DNA from: an uncultured virus (IMG/VR IMGVR_UViG_3300012009_000259)
Lineage: Duplodnaviria; Heunggongvirae; Uroviricota; Caudoviricetes
DNA: 37,153 nt
IMG/VR virus record: IMGVR_UViG_3300012009_000259
Strand: one strand, 5' to 3'
Shown: piece by piece, positions 4,480-33,887 of the stretch
How the letters are laid out: the number at the start of each line of letters is the position of its first letter
Numbering within the stretch: the stretch's first letter is position 1
Program-made: the position numbers and the translations under genes
Notes under the pieces: model-generated
Database searches by the model: none
What the model was told of the DNA's origin: nothing
Seen by the model: the letters and a program-made list of their open reading frames with translations, nothing else

Positions 4480-6168
4480 ATGGCAACTAAAGATAAGTCA
4501 AGAAAAAAGATGTCGCCATTTGTACAGGCGGCTTTGTCAAGTGTCCCGCAGACAATGAATATGGTGGAGGCGGGGCAGGTCAATTGGGGAAGTTATACTG
4601 CGGCCTTGAGTGTGCTTATACCTACCGAACGCAGTGTAGTTCACACCCCCAGAGACGCAATCTCATCTATGAGTCTGTACCCGATCTCGGCCTCTGAGGT
4701 GCTCCAGCACATTAAATCGGTGTACCAAGCGGAGCAGGAGCATATCGACAGGGCAAAGAAAAAAGGGCGAGACATCAGCGGCAGCCTAGCTATGCGTGCT
4801 AGAACCGCGAGGAAAGCACAAGATTTGATAGCTTATGGGAAAGGGGCTTTCTTGTCTCAGTTTACGTCAATGTCTATATGCGCTAACGAAAAGGCAGCAA
4901 ACGTAGCGAAGGAGAGGTTGATAGAGCGGGGTGGGAAGTATACTCTCCCCCTTCATGGATGGGTACACGCTTTACAGTCGGCATTACCGACAAGCCCCCC
5001 CAAGCCATTTACTGACCCGAAGGTGTTCTTCGTGACGACACCAGAAATAGTCGAGTCTACAATGCCGGTGCCAAGACTCCCGCGACTTCCAGAGATAACT
5101 GGTAATCCCCAGTTTTACATTGGAATTACCCAGGAAGGGGAAATGCTCACATGGTCTCCTTGGGACTCCACCAACCCTTTGTTGGGTATCTCTGGGGTAT
5201 CAGGCAGTGGCAAAAGCGTATTAGGTCGTCTGGTTATGTACCAGGCTGCGACAGTGGAAGGCATAAGAATGGTTGTTCTCGATCCCAAGGGCGAATGGGC
5301 TAATCAGTTTAGACACTTCCCCCCTAAGATGCGAGAGAAGATCACAACAATCAGCACAAGTGATCTATTTAAGCACAGCATACCCCAACCGCACGCCCTG
5401 ATTAGTATGATGTCCAGGGGAGAGATCGGAGATGCTCAGAGGCTTTCAAGCATGATGTCTCTCTTGTCGGGTTTTGCTTCCCAAGAATATAACGCATCGC
5501 TTAGACAGACCCTAAGCACGCTTATTAGCGAGGAAGAATGGGAAGAAATCACCTGGGCGAAGATATACGAGAACTTGCCTGAGAAGGCAAAAGAACCCTT
5601 CGCCATACTAGACCCCAAAGGCGCTTTCAAGAGGTTTTTCAATGGAGACAACCCATTGCCGATTGCCGAAAAAGGTGTCACCGTCATCGAGATGGAGCAC
5701 TTAACGGGCTCTTCCTCTGGAGACAAGGAAACCAATGACGCTACAACAACACTTATTTTACTAGCTATCGTCGAGAATCTCAAGAACGCGGAACGCGGCT
5801 TCTTCTTCGTAGACGAGGCACACTTTCTGCTGAAGTTGCCTAATGCCGGTGACAGCATTAGGGTCTTGATGAGGGTAGCAAGGAGTTACAAGGTAGCCGT
5901 CGCTCTTGCCTCTCAATACCTGAAAGATTTGTATGAAAGCACTGCGGCAGAAGAGTCCCTCGGTGGACAGTGCGCCTATCGTGCTCTTCTTCGCCCATCT
6001 GATCAGGAGACGCCAAGGATTGACGAATTTGGTCTATCAAAATACAAGAGGCAGATTAACACGCTGATGCAAAGCAGGCCTGGTAGCGGTCTGTGGTTTA
6101 CAGGAGGAGTAGCACGCCCCTTCTTCACCATGCTACCCAACGCGGTACGAGACTTCTGCCTCGCGTAG
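4480..6168 (+). CDS. VirB4-like (HerA/FtsK superfamily) secretion ATPase
   Basis: Walker A GVSGSGKS, VVLDPKGEW, Walker B FFFVDEAHFLL, and RVARSYKVAVALASQ (arginine finger plus SQ motif). Confidence 0.85.
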   Translation: MATKDKSRKKMSPFVQAALSSVPQTMNMVEAGQVNWGSYTAALSVLIPTERSVVHTPRDAISSMSLYPISASEVLQHIKSVYQAEQEHIDRAKKKGRDISGSLAMRARTARKAQDLIAYGKGAFLSQFTSMSICANEKAANVAKERLIERGGKYTLPLHGWVHALQSALPTSPPKPFTDPKVFFVTTPEIVESTMPVPRLPRLPEITGNPQFYIGITQEGEMLTWSPWDSTNPLLGISGVSGSGKSVLGRLVMYQAATVEGIRMVVLDPKGEWANQFRHFPPKMREKITTISTSDLFKHSIPQPHALISMMSRGEIGDAQRLSSMMSLLSGFASQEYNASLRQTLSTLISEEEWEEITWAKIYENLPEKAKEPFAILDPKGAFKRFFNGDNPLPIAEKGVTVIEMEHLTGSSSGDKETNDATTTLILLAIVENLKNAERGFFFVDEAHFLLKLPNAGDSIRVLMRVARSYKVAVALASQYLKDLYESTAAEESLGGQCAYRALLRPSDQETPRIDEFGLSKYKRQINTLMQSRPGSGLWFTGGVARPFFTMLPNAVRDFCLA

Positions 6169-6224: not shown

Positions 6225-7946
6225 TTAAGAAATTGCTTCGCGTATTTCCTCTTCTGCTGCTAGAGACGCACCACAGCTACCACACGTCCTCCTTGACGGG
6301 GCATTTGCGTTCCCGCAATAGGGGCAAATCTTGTCACGCCCCTCAGAATCGCCATTATTGCCTGACGAAGCCCAAGCACCTGCTGCGCCCCAATCATCCT
6401 CCGACTGCTGCCCTCTAGGCCCTACACCCCCTGTGGGGGTGTCCTGGTCTGAGCGTTCAGCCATTGAGTTCAGCTGAGTAAGCATTGTCTGGTCTACATC
6501 GCCAGCATCGCCCCCGCCACCACCCTGCACAGTTCGAACCTCATTCTCGACTTTTGTTCGACTGCTTTGCTGCGAGAAACTCCCACTCCCCTGTCTTTGG
6601 CTACGGGCTAAGTTGTTTAGCCCCTCTGCCACGGGGTTAAGCGCCTTCTGCATTATTTGTCCAAAGGCTCCATTATTCTCAACAGCTCGCCCATACTCCT
6701 CTTTCCATATACTAGAGGTGAACCCTTTTTGCCCCTGACCATAGGCGCTTACGCTCGAAAAAGTTACTCCTGCGAGATAGCTTCCTGCGAAGTGAGCAGA
6801 TCGCAGTATTACCATCTGTATTGAGTTGAATATGATGAGGGCGATAGCGGCAATAAAGGTCTCCATCATCATCCCCGTAAATGATGAGATGATCTCGCTT
6901 CTGCCGCTTTCAGTGGGTTCTTCTCCGACTGATGGCAGCCATGCACAGCTAGCCCCGCTTTCCCCCGTAAGGGCTTGACACACGGCCCCTCTTTCATAGG
7001 CGGTCTCAGAAGTTATAGTTAGGGCAGCTTTTACGCGCTCTGATTGTGCTGCATTGAACTGTGCCAAAGCGATAGGTGCAGCAAAAGCTGCCCCCCCTGT
7101 AATAGATGCCAGCAGCGGGATTACCACAACTGATAACAGCACGATACCGCCTACGTGCCTAGCAATGTTCCCTAAGTATGGTATCTTTTCAAGTACCGCA
7201 TACCCTGCGACACAGAGCAAGAATATGGGGAATAGGTTTCTCCCTATAAACTGTATCAGCATGATTAAGAGGTATGTGGTTTGATTTATCCCCCCTGAAG
7301 CAAGGATAGAAACAAAGTAAGTAAACGCACTAATACCTGTTATAGTCGCAATGTCGCTGTGCGACATTTTGACACCCAGGTTATTAGTGCTAGTCAGGTT
7401 CGCAGATAGCACTATTTGAGTCAGTGAAAACACGGGCACATCGGGAACCGTATCTTTAACGTTCGCAGGTAGTGCCCATTGAATCTCTTGCAGGTATTCA
7501 GCACTTCTCGTCTCTATCACCATACCTAGGAAGGCATTATATGCTCCCCCGATAATGAGCAAGGCAACTGTTACAGTAATCCCCACTTTCTGTAGCTGTA
7601 GAAATTTTGTAGAGTCTCCCTGTAAAGTATCTATAAATGCCTTCAAGGAAGATATGCCAAGGTATGCCAGAAAAAACAGAGGGATGAATGTGGTCGGTAA
7701 AGTAACCACATTCTCTGACAGAATGTCCCCGTTAATCAGCGTAAACGCACTACCCTCTTCCATCGCTATGAACACAGGGTCATACAGTGCCGTAGAGTTT
7801 CCGCGATCTAGCAATCCCCCACCTGCATTCTGGAGGATAACAAAGATCGCCAAAATAAAGTCGAATAGAATCGCTATCGACGCTTCCACGGTAACGGCGA
7901 TAGCGGTTAGTAAAAACTGACCTAGTACTGCCGGCAAGTTACCCAT
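6225..7946 (-). CDS. Polytopic membrane protein, VirB6/TrbL-like, with C-terminal zinc ribbon
   Basis: Many TM segments, a G/S-rich hydrophilic tail and a terminal CPYC-x10-CGSC; convergent with the VirB4 gene. Confidence 0.55.
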   Translation of the reverse strand: MGNLPAVLGQFLLTAIAVTVEASIAILFDFILAIFVILQNAGGGLLDRGNSTALYDPVFIAMEEGSAFTLINGDILSENVVTLPTTFIPLFFLAYLGISSLKAFIDTLQGDSTKFLQLQKVGITVTVALLIIGGAYNAFLGMVIETRSAEYLQEIQWALPANVKDTVPDVPVFSLTQIVLSANLTSTNNLGVKMSHSDIATITGISAFTYFVSILASGGINQTTYLLIMLIQFIGRNLFPIFLLCVAGYAVLEKIPYLGNIARHVGGIVLLSVVVIPLLASITGGAAFAAPIALAQFNAAQSERVKAALTITSETAYERGAVCQALTGESGASCAWLPSVGEEPTESGRSEIISSFTGMMMETFIAAIALIIFNSIQMVILRSAHFAGSYLAGVTFSSVSAYGQGQKGFTSSIWKEEYGRAVENNGAFGQIMQKALNPVAEGLNNLARSQRQGSGSFSQQSSRTKVENEVRTVQGGGGGDAGDVDQTMLTQLNSMAERSDQDTPTGGVGPRGQQSEDDWGAAGAWASSGNNGDSEGRDKICPYCGNANAPSRRTCGSCGASLAAEEEIREAIS

Positions 7947-10444: not shown

Positions 10445-10473
10445 TTGACGAATATGCACCAATATGGTACAAT
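10445..10473 (+). promoter_or_regulatory. Sigma70-type promoter with palindromic spacer (copy 1)
   Basis: TTGACG-aatatgcACCAataTGG-TACAAT, 17-nt spacer. Confidence 0.8.
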
Positions 10474-10491
10474 AGCGCAGAGGGTCAGTTA

Positions 10492-10568
10492 GCCCCCATA
10501 GCTCAATTGGATAGAGCGCCTGGTTGCGGACTAGGAGGTTTCAAGTTCAAGTCTTGATGGGGGTGCCA
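10492..10568 (+). tRNA. tRNA-Arg(GCG)
   Basis: Cloverleaf with acceptor GCCCCCA/TGGGGGT, anticodon arm CCTGG-TTGCGGA-CTAGG, T-loop TTCAAGT, encoded CCA. Confidence 0.93.
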
Positions 10569-13330: not shown

Positions 13331-13400
13331 TTTAGTGGGGGGTATTGGGGGTTATTTGGGAAGGTAGTTTAGTTGCGAACAAAAACTTTGGGACTTTCCG
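13331..13400. repeat. G/C-tract palindromic dispersed repeat, copy A (right arm missing)
   Basis: TTTAGTGGGGGGTATTGGGGG..GAAGGTAGTTTAGTTGCGAACAAAAACTTTGGGACTTTCC matches the copies at 16094 and 37085. Confidence 0.7.
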
Positions 13401-13409
13401 ACAAGAGAA

Positions 13410-13590
13410 GGGCACGATGGGAAGCAGCCGCAAATCGCTGAGCATGTCGTAGAATTTGGCATACTCTGTGTCGTCCTGGGCGATATGCGATGCAACCTGT
13501 CCGAACATTCCTGAAATACTCTCAGTCGGCTTTCCGTCTTTTCCTTTACGCAGGTATCTGCGTCTTACGATCTCGGCTCCGTTTAGAGTA
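13410..13590 (-). pseudogene. nrdJ: Fragment of ribonucleotide reductase large-subunit N-terminus (class II NrdJ-like)
   Basis: LNGAEIVRRRYLRKGKDGKPTESISGMFGQVASHIA...FYDMLSDLRLLP matches the RYL..G.P.E..EMF.RVA...FY..L....FLPNSP pattern. No RBS or start, and the similarity breaks off. Confidence 0.7.
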
Positions 13591-13614
13591 GTGAAACAGT
13601 ACAGGAGGTTGGCC

Positions 13615-13878
13615 GTGAAGAAAAGGTGTATTGGCAGATGTGTTACCCTACCAGCGGAGAGTATTAACAGGATGGTAGAAACGGCTCGCAGGGTCACCCT
13701 AAGTGAATTCCTCTCTGAAGTGCATTACCCCAGTTGTAATCACTTGCTCTACAAATTGGGGTATGGGCCAGCGTACCCAATCGAGCGAGACCAATATGTC
13801 GAGTTTTACAGATCGACCTTCGAGGGGCAATCCTGTGTGTTCATGGTTCACAGCAGGATAGAGTATGTGTTTGTCTGA
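13615..13878 (+). CDS. Small phage-type hypothetical protein
   Basis: AGGAGG RBS and GTG at 13615; MKKRCIGRCV...HSRIEYVFV. Confidence 0.7.
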   Translation: MKKRCIGRCVTLPAESINRMVETARRVTLSEFLSEVHYPSCNHLLYKLGYGPAYPIERDQYVEFYRSTFEGQSCVFMVHSRIEYVFV

Positions 13879-13884
13879 TTGGGT

Positions 13885-13913
13885 TTGACTTTTATGCACC
13901 AATCTGGTAGAAT
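13885..13913 (+). promoter_or_regulatory. Sigma70-type promoter with palindromic spacer (copy 2)
   Basis: TTGACT-tttatgcACCAatcTGG-TAGAAT, 17-nt spacer. Confidence 0.8.
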
Positions 13914-13945
13914 ATAAGAGAACCAAGGAAGGTAAGGAGATAGCA

Positions 13946-14008
13946 GTGAAATTCTTTAGCACGTCATCCAGTTCGACAACAACCGAGGGGGTAAGATCGG
14001 TTCGGTGA
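13946..14008 (+). CDS. Putative Ser/Thr-rich attenuator leader peptide MKFFSTSSSSTTTEGVRSVR
   Basis: TAAGGAG RBS, then GTG AAA TTC TTT AGC ACG TCA TCC AGT TCG ACA ACA ACC GAG GGG GTA AGA TCG GTT CGG TGA. Lies between the promoter and the terminator upstream of the Ser/Thr tRNAs. Confidence 0.8.
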   Translation: MKFFSTSSSSTTTEGVRSVR

Positions 14009-14032
14009 TGCTGCCATAAGGAGAGTAGCTGC

Positions 14033-14067
14033 AAGAGGGGCGCACACCAGCGCCCCTCTTTTGTTTT
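14033..14067 (+). terminator. Intrinsic terminator (attenuator 3:4 hairpin) directly upstream of the tRNA array
   Basis: AAGAGGGGCGC-acacca-GCGCCCCTCTT-TTGTTTT. Confidence 0.85.
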
Positions 14068-14071
14068 ACAT

Positions 14072-14158
14072 GGAAGGGTGACAGAGTGGATTATCGTGGC
14101 CGTCTGCTAAGCGGTTTGCGTCTAAAAGCGCACGCGGGTTCGAATCCCGCCCCTTCCG
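14072..14158 (+). tRNA. tRNA-Ser(GCT)
   Basis: Acceptor GGAAGGG/CCCTTCC plus G73, loop CTGCTAA, long variable arm, GTTCGAATC; CCA not encoded. Confidence 0.93.
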
Positions 14159-14194
14159 CTCAGTACAAGATAGGACTTTAACAGAAGAAGACTC

Positions 14195-14281
14195 GGAGAG
14201 GTGTCAGAGTGGATTATCGTAACGGTTTCGAAAACCGTTGTAGTGTTACAGCTACCGTGGGTTCGAATCCCACCCTCTCCG
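14195..14281 (+). tRNA. tRNA-Ser(CGA)
   Basis: GGAGAGG/CCTCTCC plus G, ACGGT-TTCGAAA-ACCGT, long variable arm. Confidence 0.93.
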
Positions 14282-14330
14282 CTAGTATTACACCGTACCT
14301 GAAACCTGTGAGTATAATGTAACAGGTCTT

Positions 14331-14402
14331 GCCGATGTAGCTCAAAGGTAGAGCATCCGCTTCGTAAGCGGGGGGTTGTGGGTTCGAGTCCTACCTTCGG
14401 CT
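14331..14402 (+). tRNA. tRNA-Thr(CGT)
   Basis: GCCGATG/CTTCGGC, TCCGC-TTCGTAA-GCGGG, GTTCGAGTC. Confidence 0.9.
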
Positions 14403-14430
14403 TTTTATCCAACACGGTAAGGGGGCAGAT

Positions 14431-14661
14431 ATGGGGGAAGGTATCTCACTTAAGAGTGTTTTAATGCACATTCTAGTAGGGGCACCAATTCTAGTCGTGT
14501 TAGTTGCGGCTATTTATGCCGCGATGAGGCTCGTGTTTAGGTATTGGTATTTGTTAGATGAGGTGCTTTGGGGGATCGTGTTTATATCTATGTCATATAT
14601 AGCGGGGTACTTGGCAAAGGAAGCGCAGACACAGATACGTTTTGCACGATCAAAGAAGTAA
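14431..14661 (+). CDS. Small two-TM membrane protein within the tRNA array
   Basis: AAGGGGG RBS, two hydrophobic helices. Confidence 0.65.
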   Translation: MGEGISLKSVLMHILVGAPILVVLVAAIYAAMRLVFRYWYLLDEVLWGIVFISMSYIAGYLAKEAQTQIRFARSKK

Positions 14662-14666
14662 ATTCT

Positions 14667-14753
14667 GGAGGGGTGGCAGAGCGGACGAATGCGGCGGTCT
14701 AGAAAACCGTTGTGGCTGCAAGGTCACCGTGGGTTCGAATCCCACCCCCTCCG
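14667..14753 (+). tRNA. tRNA-Ser(AGA)
   Basis: GGAGGGG/CCCCTCC plus G, GCGGT-CTAGAAA-ACCGT, long variable arm. Confidence 0.9.
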
Positions 14754-14759
14754 CTACAT

Positions 14760-14831
14760 GCTGATGTAACTCAATGATAGAGTACCTGTTTTGTAAACAG
14801 GGAGTTGTGGGTTCGAATCCCACCTTCAGCT
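14760..14831 (+). tRNA. tRNA-Thr(TGT), D-loop lacks GG
   Basis: GCTGATG/CTTCAGC, CCTGT-TTTGTAA-ACAGG, GTTCGAATC. Confidence 0.85.
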
Positions 14832-14926
14832 CTTACCTGCACAGTTGAGTAGTAATTCGAAATATCACAGAACCGATACTCAAGAAGTATAATGTTCTAA
14901 GGATTCACTTAGAACGGAGGATATAA

Positions 14927-15697
14927 TTGACGGTAAGGAACGATAGAGTAGTTTCGTATGTGGATGTCTGTGATATAAAAGTGTCCCTCCCTCATTCTTA
15001 CCTTAACGTTGATAGGGTAGGTATATATATTAGATACCTGGGGAGACCAGTTGCGGTGGCCTATGACTCTATTAGCTCGATACATAGGACAGACCTTATC
15101 GAAACGGACTATAGAAGCATCGAGGCCCTCTTTGACAGATACCTTGGGGTAAGCGTGTTGGAGAGCCCCGTAGACCTTAAAGGTCTTAGGTTGGTTCCAC
15201 ACCATAGAGATGGTGTGCAACTAGAAGATGATAAAGGGAAGGTGCTTACCGCAGGCGCTTTAAGAGCCCCATCCTATTTTGGCGCTTTTATGAATGTGAG
15301 AGCGTTCCTGGAGGGGCAGCGGGACTTAGTGCGAGTTATGGCTGACTGGAGTTTGGGGCTTTCGGTAGCCAGGATTGGGGGCAGGTATTTCGTTTACAAG
15401 GGGGACAAGTCAAGGCGCGAGCGGTATAGATACTTTGAGACATACCCCTACGTTTTGAGAGATTTGCTCGCGTTAGGCGGGGAGGGGGGCAGGCATCGGC
15501 ACTATATCTTATTTAGGAATGGCTCAATTTACTTCTCTGGTGAAGGGGCAGATAAGGCCCAGTTTAGGGAAGAGGTCAGTAGAATTTTTCCAAGGGGCCT
15601 TAAGATGCTTAAGCGATTTGGGCACTTGTCGCGCCCCCAGGCAAGCGCCGAACTAAAGCCCCAGGACATGAGGGAGTATAGTTGCAGTTGGGGATAG
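14927..15697 (+). CDS. Hypothetical protein within the tRNA array
   Basis: GGAGG RBS, TTG start, 256 aa. Confidence 0.7.
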   Translation: MTVRNDRVVSYVDVCDIKVSLPHSYLNVDRVGIYIRYLGRPVAVAYDSISSIHRTDLIETDYRSIEALFDRYLGVSVLESPVDLKGLRLVPHHRDGVQLEDDKGKVLTAGALRAPSYFGAFMNVRAFLEGQRDLVRVMADWSLGLSVARIGGRYFVYKGDKSRRERYRYFETYPYVLRDLLALGGEGGRHRHYILFRNGSIYFSGEGADKAQFREEVSRIFPRGLKMLKRFGHLSRPQASAELKPQDMREYSCSWG

Positions 15698-15703
15698 TTA
15701 TTT

Positions 15704-15776
15704 GCCCATATAGCTCAGTTGGCAGAGCGCATCCTTGGTAAGGATGAGGTCGCGGGTTCAACTCCCGCTGTGGGCT
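15704..15776 (+). tRNA. tRNA-Thr(GGT)
   Basis: GCCCATA/TGTGGGC, CATCC-TTGGTAA-GGATG. Confidence 0.93.
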
Positions 15777-15781
15777 CTTAT

Positions 15782-15868
15782 GGAAGGGTGTCAGAGTGGA
15801 TTATCGTGACGGTCTTGAAAACCGTTGTAGCTGTGAGGCTACCGAGGGTTCGAATCCCTCCCCTTCCG
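15782..15868 (+). tRNA. tRNA-Ser(TGA)
   Basis: GGAAGGG/CCCTTCC plus G, ACGGT-CTTGAAA-ACCGT, long variable arm. Confidence 0.93.
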
Positions 15869-15874
15869 CTAAAT

Positions 15875-15947
15875 GCCGATGTAGCACAATTGGTAGTGCA
15901 TCCGCTTTGTAAGCGGGGGGTTGTGGGTTCGAGTCCCACCTTCGGCT
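15875..15947 (+). tRNA. tRNA-Thr(TGT), second copy
   Basis: GCCGATG/CTTCGGC, TCCGC-TTTGTAA-GCGGG. Confidence 0.9.
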
Positions 15948-16093
15948 CTGTAATCACACCATCAGGTCATGCGCTTCATCAACCTCACTTAGCGTACAAA
16001 CTCTGCTTGCAAAGTCTTCTAAAAGTGACCCTGGCATATATATCCTTCCATGCGCCTTTTCTTTATTATATTGCATAGGGCACAGTTAATAGC

Positions 16094-17062: not shown

Positions 17063-18265
17063 ATGAACGGGCGACTGGGATGGAATGACATTCACGAAGG
17101 CGTAATCAACGACGGATTTCACCTCACCCTGCAATGTACAGACCTGAACGGCAACAGCAACAAGGTCTGGAAGGTGGAGTGGGACAACGGCACCATGAGT
17201 GCCTATTGGGGTAGGGTTGGCGCTAAACTACAATCTTCTTCGAAGAGGGCTACTCCTCACAGCGTGGTCAAGAAGATACGCTCCAAAAGAAAGAAAGGCT
17301 ACGAGATCGTTTCCGAGGGATTTCTTCAGGAAGTCGAAATCGACGCTCCTGAGTCAGTCCGTAAGTTTCTTCGTTGGGCAACAATGTCAGCGAACAACGA
17401 CATTGCATCGTATTACACGGGAGATGTGGGCGGCCTCTCTCCTGCACAGATACAGGCAGGCCAGCAACAGATTGATCTAATTTCCTCTCTTACCCAACAG
17501 CCTTATGACCTACACCAGGTCATAAAAGAAGTAGAGCGTTACTACACGCTTATTCCCTCCAAACTGCCTCATCGTATTGTCCCCGAACAAGTGACAAGGG
17601 ATTTTATTAAAAATCTAGATGAGCAGCAAGAGAGGCTTCGGCAGTTAAGCGCGGCCCAAAAAGGACTCGCCGCGCAACAGGCAGACAAAGTTAGTGTAGA
17701 AGACCTTTTTGGTTGCGGGGTTTTTGAGACTGCGGAAGAACGCAGAGAGGAGATCACCAGGAAGGTGCTGGAGACTGCGCGAAACAAGATTTCCCGTAGA
17801 GACATTCTTGAGGTAGTGAGCCTGGAGTCCCCTGAGCGAAAGGAGAGGTACGAGTCTCTCCCGATAAAGAATGAGGAACCAATACTCTTCCACGGCACAA
17901 AGACGCCCTATGTGCGACACATTGTCCGTCAGGGGCTAGTCCTGTCGAAGGCGGGAACGGGGACTCTTTTTGGGAGAGGGCTTTATTTCGGTAATGAATC
18001 CTCGAAGGCCCTCTCCTACGCAAAGGGGGGAGAGGTTAGGATGTTCTTCATTGCTCGTGTTAATCGAGGCCGAAGTTTTGACCCTACCTCAAAACTAAGC
18101 CAACACGATGTCAGGCGTCTACTAGAACAAGGGTATCATTCCGTATGGGCTCGGAAGGCGCGGCAGATTGATGGTGTTTATCGAGGCTCCCTTGACCATG
18201 ATGAGATCACCATTTACGAAGAGGCTCGACATGATCTAACAGATGTGGTAGTCTTAGCATCTTAA
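17063..18265 (+). CDS. WGR-domain poly(ADP-ribose) polymerase (bacterial PARP)
   Basis: WGR domain (NSNKVW..AYWGRVG..K.KKGY), regulatory-domain-like YYTLIPSKL, catalytic LFHGT / GTLFGRGLYFG..SSKALSY / HDEITIY (H-Y-E triad). Confidence 0.9.
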   Translation: MNGRLGWNDIHEGVINDGFHLTLQCTDLNGNSNKVWKVEWDNGTMSAYWGRVGAKLQSSSKRATPHSVVKKIRSKRKKGYEIVSEGFLQEVEIDAPESVRKFLRWATMSANNDIASYYTGDVGGLSPAQIQAGQQQIDLISSLTQQPYDLHQVIKEVERYYTLIPSKLPHRIVPEQVTRDFIKNLDEQQERLRQLSAAQKGLAAQQADKVSVEDLFGCGVFETAEERREEITRKVLETARNKISRRDILEVVSLESPERKERYESLPIKNEEPILFHGTKTPYVRHIVRQGLVLSKAGTGTLFGRGLYFGNESSKALSYAKGGEVRMFFIARVNRGRSFDPTSKLSQHDVRRLLEQGYHSVWARKARQIDGVYRGSLDHDEITIYEEARHDLTDVVVLAS

Positions 18266-28029: not shown

Positions 28030-28118
28030 GGAAGGATGGCAGAGTCAGGCTAATTGCGCCTGCTTGGAGAGCAGGTATAGCCGAAAGGCTATCGGGGGTT
28101 CGAATCCCTCTCCTTCCG
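28030..28118 (+). tRNA. tRNA-Ser(GGA)
   Basis: GGAAGGA/TCCTTCC plus G, CCTGC-TTGGAGA-GCAGG, variable arm with GAAA tetraloop. Confidence 0.92.
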
Positions 28119-28168
28119 CTTAGTATCAAAAAGCGAGCAACAATCAGAAAATACAGAGAGGCGATATA

Positions 28169-33380: not shown

Positions 33381-33887
33381 CTACCTTTCCTTTGTAGCGT
33401 GTAGTGCTGCTCTTGTTCTTTCTCTAACTATCGCGCAATTGCACTGCGCGATGCGGCGGGGTGAAGAAGTCTCAGCATCGGCATTAAGTCGTTGGGCCGC
33501 ATCAGTAATCCGACGCTTAATCTCGTTGGTGACATGCGGGACGACTTGAATGGTTCCCCCTAGGTAGTCCCCCCTACGCTCTTTGTTGATCACGTCCCGA
33601 TATACTTGACCAGAAGTGACGTTGTTTAATTGCCCCAACTCTTCATCAATAAACCTCTCATAATGGCCTAAGTCGAGGTCGGTCTCCGCACCATCAGCGG
33701 TAACAAACACTTCACCGCGTTGATATGGGGCCATCGTCCCTGGATCAACATTCAGGTAGGGGTCTAGCTTTTGAATAGACACTCTCAGCCCCCTGGACTT
33801 TAATAACCTGCCAATAGAGGCCGCTGCTATTCCTTTACCGAGGGAGGAAACTACTCCCCCCGTTATAAATATGTACTTCACAGCCAA
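33381..33887 (-). pseudogene. pyrG: Truncated CTP synthase (about 135 N-terminal residues of the synthetase domain)
   Basis: [66 protein letters not shown], followed by an unrelated tail. No GGTVGDIE motif and no glutaminase domain. Confidence 0.9.

Follow-up and report, generated by a model that had tools for sequence, protein, structure and literature searches.

A leader peptide rich in serine and threonine codons before serine and threonine tRNA genes: a candidate ribosome-sensed attenuator in an uncultured mobile element

The DNA analysed here, a stretch of 37,153 nucleotides (nt) from the uncultured virus record IMGVR_UViG_3300012009_000259 that is called the window throughout, is part of an uncultured mobile element from a microbial-mat metagenome, with a contig of 161,153 base pairs (bp) in one assembly and 189,846 bp in another. 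Between positions 13885 and 15948 it carries a promoter, a short open reading frame (ORF) led by a Shine-Dalgarno (SD) sequence, an intrinsic terminator and eight genes for serine (Ser) and threonine (Thr) transfer RNAs (tRNAs), the anticodons of which are, in order, GCT, CGA, CGT, AGA, TGT, GGT, TGA and TGT (14072-15948; Table 1). An earlier note on this DNA had described these parts as a leader-peptide attenuator that gates the tRNA genes. The promoter, the TAAGGAG ribosome-binding site, the 20-codon ORF, the terminator with its U-tract and the eight tRNA genes were all found where that note had placed them.

Table 1. Features of the Ser/Thr tRNA unit, related features of the window, and the units of Salicola phage SCTP-2 (aa, amino acids)
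Feature	Position	Strand	Remarks
Sister promoter and tRNA-Arg(GCG)	10445-10568	+	promoter 10445-10473, tRNA 18 nt later (10492); no leader or terminator
Promoter: TTGACT, 17-nt spacer, TG-extended TAGAAT	13885-13913	+	10/12 matches, TG present
SD sequence TAAGGAG	13933-13939	+	6 nt 5' of GTG 13946
Leader ORF, 20 codons and TGA, MKFFSTSSSSTTTEGVRSVR	13946-14008	+	GTG start, TGA 14006-14008
Segment 1	13952-13968	+	predicted to pair with segment 2 when ribosome-free; in minimum free energy folds
Nine consecutive Ser/Thr control codons, 8 distinct	13958-13984	+	AGC ACG TCA TCC AGT TCG ACA ACA ACC
Inner hairpin AACCGA/UCGGUU	13981-14002	+	-6.0 kcal/mol
Segment 2	14004-14023	+	spans stop codon 14006-14008; 14004-14015 is the antiterminator 5' strand
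Intrinsic terminator	14033-14069	+	11-bp stem, 8 G-C pairs, 6-nt loop (14033-14060), U-tract tail TTGTTTTACA, -22.2 kcal/mol
Segment 3 partner of antiterminator	14039-14048	+	last 5 nt of terminator 5' arm and 5 loop nt
tRNA-Ser(GCT)	14072-14159	+	starts 2-4 nt past U-tract
tRNA-Ser(CGA)	14195-14282	+	
TATAAT box, possible internal promoter	14313-14318	+	12 nt before tRNA-Thr(CGT); weak -35, unreported by promoter scan
tRNA-Thr(CGT)	14331-14402	+	
76-aa hydrophobic ORF in array	14431-14661	+	ends 5 nt before tRNA-Ser(AGA); no family match
tRNA-Ser(AGA), A at position 34	14667-14754	+	
tRNA-Thr(TGT), first copy	14760-14832	+	
Promoter-like ATCACA-18-TATAAT	14864-14893	+	10/12 matches, before 256-aa ORF
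256-aa ORF, no assigned function, in array	14927-15697	+	ends 6 nt before tRNA-Thr(GGT); no family match
tRNA-Thr(GGT)	15704-15777	+	
tRNA-Ser(TGA)	15782-15869	+	
tRNA-Thr(TGT), second copy	15875-15948	+	91% identical to Thr(CGT)
tRNA-Ser(GGA), outside array	28030-28119	+	Watson-Crick reader of leader TCC; no leader
SCTP-2 units	L006 6734-7000, 11743-12011, 19199-19441; L011 1314-1548		stretches of MF360958.1

The promoter of the unit has one close relative in the window. A 29-nt motif, TTGACnnnTATGCACCAATnTGGTAnAAT, occurs in exactly two copies (at 10445 and 13885, with 0 expected), each 5' of tRNA genes; the two copies are identical at 24 of 29 nt and are also the only TTGAC-N16-18-TAnAAT sites present. 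A generic promoter scan, by comparison, found 4 sites where 3.2 were expected, which is not above chance. The sister copy drives the tRNA-Arg gene directly, so the leader and terminator represent an insertion found in the Ser/Thr unit alone. The neighbouring gene 5' of the unit, at 13332-13697, is divergent (minus strand), and the terminator therefore ends the leader transcript and nothing else. It should be mentioned that a further minus-strand ORF, 13699-14034, spans the promoter, and that tRNA-Arg(GCG) is the only one of the ten tRNAs with an encoded CCA end. The Arg anticodon GCG is unusual in bacteria.

The leader is the only small SD-led ORF between the promoter and the Ser/Thr tRNA block, and inspection of the sequence reveals no in-frame start further 5' of its GTG. 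GGAGG-type sites stand a few nt before the start of many longer ORFs of the window as well. Serine or threonine makes up 10 of the 19 residues after Met (binomial P = 1e-4), and the nine consecutive control codons that the earlier note had pointed out are present as leader codons 5-13. In none of the six frames of the window is there a longer Ser/Thr run, and the next one has 7 codons; runs of at least nine are expected 0.0017 times in the window, and none of 200 dinucleotide shuffles reaches nine. The peptide itself has no family or recognisable feature. An alternative genetic code, in which the TGA at 14006 would be read through and the frame would enter the tRNA, was ruled out by eye.

The improbability of the codon run bears directly on whether the arrangement could have arisen by chance, with an untranslated ORF and with promoter, hairpin and tRNA genes adjacent but functionally unlinked. 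The generic scans would allow it, since neither the promoters nor the terminators (4 found, 2.6 expected) are enriched, and the collections searched lend no conservation support. The rarity of a run of this length, the correctly spaced SD sequence and the duplicated promoter motif nevertheless speak against it, as does the occurrence of the same architecture, four times out of four, in Salicola phage SCTP-2 (described below), and we consider coincidence very improbable.

The terminator stem is separated by 11 nt from the first tRNA, and alternative pairings are predicted for the leader RNA. The minimum free energy (MFE) fold of the free leader (-53.9 kcal/mol, z = -4.1) combines the pairing of segments 1 and 2, the inner hairpin and the terminator, the 1:2 hairpin (a 17-bp helix, 13952-13968 with 14004-14023) having -19.9 kcal/mol by itself. 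For the stalled state, a 33-nt ribosome footprint was masked and the transcript was cut at 14050, before the 3' arm of the terminator. When the ribosomal A site is placed at 13958 or 13982 (two of the three positions tried), the MFE fold holds the antiterminator, 14004-14015 with 14039-14048. A ribosome anywhere in the Ser/Thr run masks segment 1 and leaves segment 2 free, whereas one positioned at the stop codon hides segment 2 and leaves the terminator to form. This masking geometry fits the classical attenuator model. It is also observed that a second TAAGGAGA-TAGC stretch, at 14017-14032 and 9 nt past the leader stop, is a near-repeat of the leader ribosome-binding region (13933-13947); it is followed by no start codon and makes the outer part of segment 2.

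A switch that binds tRNA directly, of the T-box type, or another riboswitch in place of a translated leader, would suit the position before translation-related genes, where T-boxes are also found. The searches give it no footing: tRNA is the sole Rfam family matched in the window at gathering score, the T-box family not reaching it, and cmscan of 13850-14100 with E up to 10 returned three chance-level matches, none of them a T-box or a leader family such as Thr_leader, His_leader, Trp_leader or Leu_leader. The leader is moreover only about 150 nt long and contains an SD-led ORF. A riboswitch of this kind is hardly credible here.

Independent support for a translated sensor before tRNA genes comes from a survey in which six named phage tRNA loci were screened for small ORFs that lie 5' of the tRNAs and are enriched in the corresponding amino acids. 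One of them, T5, was picked freely, and the other five were chosen, as distinct named phages, from the 20 matches listed. In Salicola phage SCTP-2 (MF360958.1), a terminator core, CCTTCC-N3-6-GGAAGG, is present in 4 copies in 440,001 bp, compared to 0 for the reversed control, and each of the four is preceded by a small ORF and followed, 25-47 nt later, by a tRNA block. The composition of these ORFs follows the block behind them. In one-letter amino acid codes, a D/H/M/I leader precedes the block Asp, His, Met, Ile, Met (enrichment P = 6e-4), a K/F/W leader precedes Lys, Phe, Trp (P = 0.017), a T/S/E leader precedes Ser, Glu, Thr (P = 1.5e-6) and a Q/L/P/Y leader precedes Leu, Pro, Leu, Tyr, Gln (P = 0.002). 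For each of the four leaders, its own array is the best match. The leader ORFs at 6769, 11816 and 19272 of stretch L006 include annotated 'hypothetical proteins' (genes 351 and 364).

The SCTP-2 units also share regulatory parts. The promoter and 5' region are identical in two of them, and three of the four are preceded by a TTGACA-type promoter. Three units were folded, and in each of these a GGAAGGG-like stretch within the final codons of the ORF pairs with the 5' arm of the terminator, with energies of -18 to -31 kcal/mol; the 5' strand of the antiterminator thus sits in the 3' end of the ORF, and segment 2 of the window occupies the corresponding position. Both systems have an SD-led small ORF enriched in the amino acids of the downstream tRNAs and a terminator less than 50 nt before the first tRNA. 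There is, in contrast, no sequence similarity between them. The SCTP-2 leaders are longer (27-43 residues after Met) with the matched residues interspersed, their antiterminators are much stronger than that of the window, and each SCTP-2 block mixes several amino-acid types. SCTP-2 has several units that share a cassette and differ in their leaders, whereas the 37-kb window has one unit, its tRNA-Arg and tRNA-Ser(GGA) genes being without leader. The parallel is one of analogy, not homology; as such, it shows that a design of this kind is present beyond this element and changes along with its output, and it supports the attenuator independently.

Taken together, we think it probable, though well short of certain, that a ribosome-sensed transcription attenuator with product feedback stands before the tRNA genes, and that the element probably makes these Ser/Thr tRNAs mainly when the codons of the run are read slowly. 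Transcription would begin at about 13920 from the strong promoter, and a ribosome would load at the SD sequence and GTG and translate the 20-codon leader. With fast decoding, this ribosome would get to the stop codon and cover segment 2, the terminator would form, and the transcript would end 2-5 nt before tRNA-Ser(GCT). If no ribosome were loaded, segment 1 would pair with segment 2 and the terminator would form too. A ribosome stalled in the Ser/Thr run would instead cover segment 1 and leave segment 2 free to pair with 14039-14048 while the 3' arm of the terminator is still untranscribed, and with this antiterminator in place RNA polymerase would continue into the tRNA genes. Because these tRNAs would themselves relieve the stall, the circuit would be self-limiting. 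Slow decoding might itself result from loss of host tRNAs, from poor host supply or from low charging.

A number of results weigh against this proposal, the first group of which concerns RNA folding. The 1:2 duplex is not exceptional when compared with shuffles (P = 0.10), and for the leader without its terminator z is -1.73, which 11 of 200 shuffles match. At the third A-site position tried, 13970, the MFE fold favours a hairpin at 13987-14015 (-10.5 kcal/mol) that occupies segment 2 and leaves the terminator arm free. In the stalled state, 32% of 1000 spacer shuffles are at least as stable as the actual sequence, and 25% of 1000 are as stable with at least 5 nt of the terminator arm paired; the duplex test for the 2:3 pairing gives P = 0.08, and the antiterminator takes up only 5 of the 11 nt in the terminator 5' arm. 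Its hairpin has -14.5 kcal/mol against -22.2 kcal/mol for the terminator, and in the full-length transcript the terminator is in the MFE fold at every ribosome position tried. Since the terminator wins all full-length folds, any switch must be kinetic. In the trp attenuator, too, the terminator is more stable than the antiterminator, hence its kinetic control. Counting in favour of the attenuator, a combined 'switch' criterion, defined post hoc, holds for 3.5% of 1000 spacer shuffles.

Of the mutually exclusive pairings that the earlier note had drawn by eye, the 1:2 pairing, in extended form, and the inner hairpin are thus recovered in the MFE fold and the 2:3 pairing in two of three constrained folds, but the 2:3 pairing is equalled by shuffled spacers. 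Folding with and without a ribosome footprint, which the note had proposed as a check, likewise yields the antiterminator at two of three stall positions but the terminator in every full-length fold. As modelled, the antiterminator pairing is no better than that of shuffled spacers, and the switch is no more than plausible.

The same findings are compatible with a fixed throttle, in which a constitutively leaky terminator would set tRNA transcription at a low level and the run of the translated ORF would serve a micropeptide or nothing. An antiterminator equalled by shuffled spacers and a terminator that dominates all full-length folds are both in line with such an arrangement, and the tRNA-Arg gene uses the same promoter without control, so regulation is not obligatory. 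A throttle leaves unexplained, however, why the sole Ser/Thr run of such length in the window directly precedes Ser/Thr tRNA genes and why the four SCTP-2 leaders change composition with their arrays, and the leader peptide has no recognisable feature. We regard this alternative as unlikely. Control might also depend on translation by another route, with a stalled ribosome altering Rho access, RNase processing or pre-tRNA stability. The codon run and the SD sequence argue for translation under this mechanism as well, the weak antiterminator leaves room for a different output step, and the hairpin abuts the 5' end of the tRNA, where RNase P cuts. On the other hand, the hairpin and U-tract together form a canonical intrinsic terminator, segment 2 contains the stop codon, a trait of classical attenuators, and the antiterminator pairing in SCTP-2 is explicit. 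Such an indirect route appears quite unlikely to us.

A second group of points, which fall on both sides, concerns the codons of the leader. The run is diverse, its 8 distinct codons having P = 0.06 given the codon usage of the element, and the match between leader codons and the element's own anticodons claimed in the earlier note holds for 7 of the 8 distinct Ser/Thr anticodons of the window, for which the leader contains Watson-Crick codons (P = 0.04). One of the seven, Ser(GGA), lies outside the array, however, and counting the array only, the match is 6 of 7 (P = 0.11). TCT and ACT are absent from the leader, which leaves tRNA-Ser(AGA) without a Watson-Crick codon there. The codon choice suggests that the leader could sense single isoacceptors. 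In the form given by the note, with the loss of an individual isoacceptor to a host nuclease as the trigger, the idea is unsupported, as the codon-anticodon matching beyond the level of the amino acid has P = 0.04 to 0.11.

A third point concerns how far along the array the gate would reach. There is no space for a promoter in the 2-5 nt before the first tRNA, and tRNA-Ser(GCT) and tRNA-Ser(CGA) can therefore come only from read-through. These two are the only array tRNAs without an alternative promoter: the sites at 14313 and 14864-14893 could feed six of the eight tRNAs independently. The internal promoters that had been named as another possible source of the tRNAs are thus present as sequences, but the first two genes have none. 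The attenuator certainly stands before these two, and it possibly gates all eight; the reading of the unit as an attenuator that gates its tRNAs remains the best explanation of its anatomy and has its parallel in SCTP-2, while its extension to the whole array is uncertain. Between tRNA-Ser(CGA) and tRNA-Thr(CGT) there is also a 6-bp hairpin, ACCTGT/ACAGGT (14303-14326), with the TATAAT in its loop, which could be a promoter or a processing site.

Finally, five of the six surveyed loci (T5, LPJP1, TsarBomba, RB11-B and ZC03) have no matched leader, the best P among small ORFs being 0.006 (n = 120), 0.11 (14), 0.04 (27), 0.03 (31) and 0.054 (25), respectively. No relatives of the element were found in viral contigs, in phage and plasmid records or in protein collections; metagenome contigs were searched with the 256-aa ORF only. 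In the viral contigs, the leader 27-mer, the tRNA-Ser pattern and the promoter motif had 0 matches, and scans with the 256-aa ORF, the ATPase and the PARP-like protein (both described below) found no relatives. A tRNA-Thr 20-mer matched three viral contigs, with which the element has the tRNA alone in common. Searches by tblastn with the ATPase against phages and plasmids, and with a 955-aa protein against phages, gave no matches. The leader was found on a single contig, with 0 differences across three sequencing runs of one sample, possibly its source; the remaining contig matches in those runs are tRNAs of other organisms. Among the runs listed for this sequence, none is an RNA run.

The reason for tRNA genes in phage genomes has been a matter of debate for decades. 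If ribosome-sensed attenuation operates at this locus, some elements produce tRNAs on demand, and the stimulus, slow decoding of particular codons, has a direct and testable read-out. Ribosome-mediated attenuation would then extend from amino-acid supply to tRNA supply, with the product acting on its own sensor. The four units of SCTP-2 belong to a phage that has been isolated and whose host is named, which makes the idea testable at the bench, beyond metagenomes. A wider conjecture, offered tentatively and with less than even confidence, is that large phages and related elements carry a so far undescribed class of demand sensors, leader peptides written in the codons of their own tRNA genes, which would induce these genes when ribosomes lack exactly those tRNAs. 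In the present case nearly every Ser/Thr isoacceptor would be sampled through a Watson-Crick codon of its own, and loss of any host species, perhaps to a tRNA-cutting defence, could trigger a replacement set that silences itself when decoding has recovered.

Several features of the array deserve description. Some of its tRNAs are in-element duplicates with different anticodons, Thr(CGT)/Thr(TGT) being 91% and Ser(CGA)/Ser(TGA) 86% identical, which suggests that a complete set for decoding Ser/Thr has been selected for. The tRNA-Ser(AGA) is paralogous to Ser(CGA) and Ser(TGA), with 80% identity to either one. An A at position 34 is rare in bacteria outside tRNA-Arg. TCT is the most used Ser codon in the ORFs of the window, at 15.3 per 1000. 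The 76-aa and 256-aa ORFs probably each share a transcript with the tRNAs behind them. Two relatives of the 256-aa ORF were found, with 50-52% identity, and the one relative locus examined has no tRNA genes; the structure model of the protein is poor, with a predicted local distance difference test score (pLDDT) of 46. Positions 1-90 of that relative locus contain two copies of a CRISPR-like repeat of about 29 nt (GTGTTCCCCGCACACGCGGGGGTG...), about 20 nt apart.

The proteins of the element, nearly all orphans, include a VirB4/HerA-like ATPase, an HNH endonuclease, a PARP-like protein and short enzyme fragments, the latter being pieces of ribonucleotide reductase and cytidine triphosphate (CTP) synthase. 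The ATPase (VirB4/TraC/HerA-like, 4480-6168, plus strand) has itself as the sole match among 5.8 billion proteins. The PARP-like protein, of 400 aa, is encoded just 3' of the tRNA array (17063-18265, plus strand) and has WGR, PARP regulatory and PARP catalytic domains. Residues 2-132 of CTP synthase (E = 8.5e-75) form a separate short N-terminal ORF, as does the all-alpha N domain of ribonucleotide reductase, the fragment ORFs being located at 33381-33887 and 13332-13697, both on the minus strand. They may be split genes, decoys or remnants. The best match of the CTP synthase fragment is an Anaerolineae genome (82%), and several of the next-best are also Chloroflexota (75-80%), a weak hint at the host lineage. 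The host is probably not a proteobacterium. By sequence comparison, the lineage of the element is otherwise absent from the collections searched.

The array may be compared with the tRNAs of phages that, according to recent work, replace host tRNAs destroyed by defence nucleases (PMC10264068, PMC11464382, PMC11555353). The element resembles the phages concerned in having tRNAs of its own that could take the place of host species, in its case a near-complete set for Ser and Thr with in-element duplicates. As far as the abstracts' opening parts and the listings of these papers go, regulated, demand-driven expression is not mentioned there. The analysis identified no defence system that targets Ser/Thr tRNAs, and a text search of two Schlafen papers for Ser/Thr tRNA terms found none. 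The XacN1 paper has 0 occurrences of 'leader', 'attenuat' or 'terminator'. As the earlier note had supposed, no account of leader-peptide attenuation of tRNA genes was found in the literature, subscription journals and old phage papers lying largely outside the search.

Among known regulators, T-box riboswitches increase the expression of translation-related genes by favouring an antiterminator instead of a terminator if the charged form of a given tRNA is scarce. They bind the tRNA directly and without a ribosome, in contrast to the window, which has an SD-led ORF and no T-box match. The pheM-pheST attenuator, in which a leader peptide controls an aminoacyl-tRNA synthetase, is closer in that the leader acts on part of the translation machinery and not on amino-acid synthesis. 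Its output is a protein enzyme, however, whereas that of the window would be the decoding tRNAs, a direct feedback on the sensor. The leader peptides thrL, trpL, hisL, leuL, pheL and ilvL of E. coli belong to attenuators of amino-acid operons, with which the window shares the promoter, the SD-led short ORF, the run of control codons, the stop codon in or next to segment 2 and the intrinsic terminator, and, as candidates, the alternative 1:2, 2:3 and 3:4 pairings. It differs from them in sampling two amino acids with 8 different codons and in having no sequence or structure homology to them, and the genes it would regulate are tRNAs and two ORFs without family match, not biosynthetic or synthetase genes. 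With tRNA genes as its output, the arrangement falls outside the outputs that define the thr, trp, his, leu, pheA and pheST attenuators.

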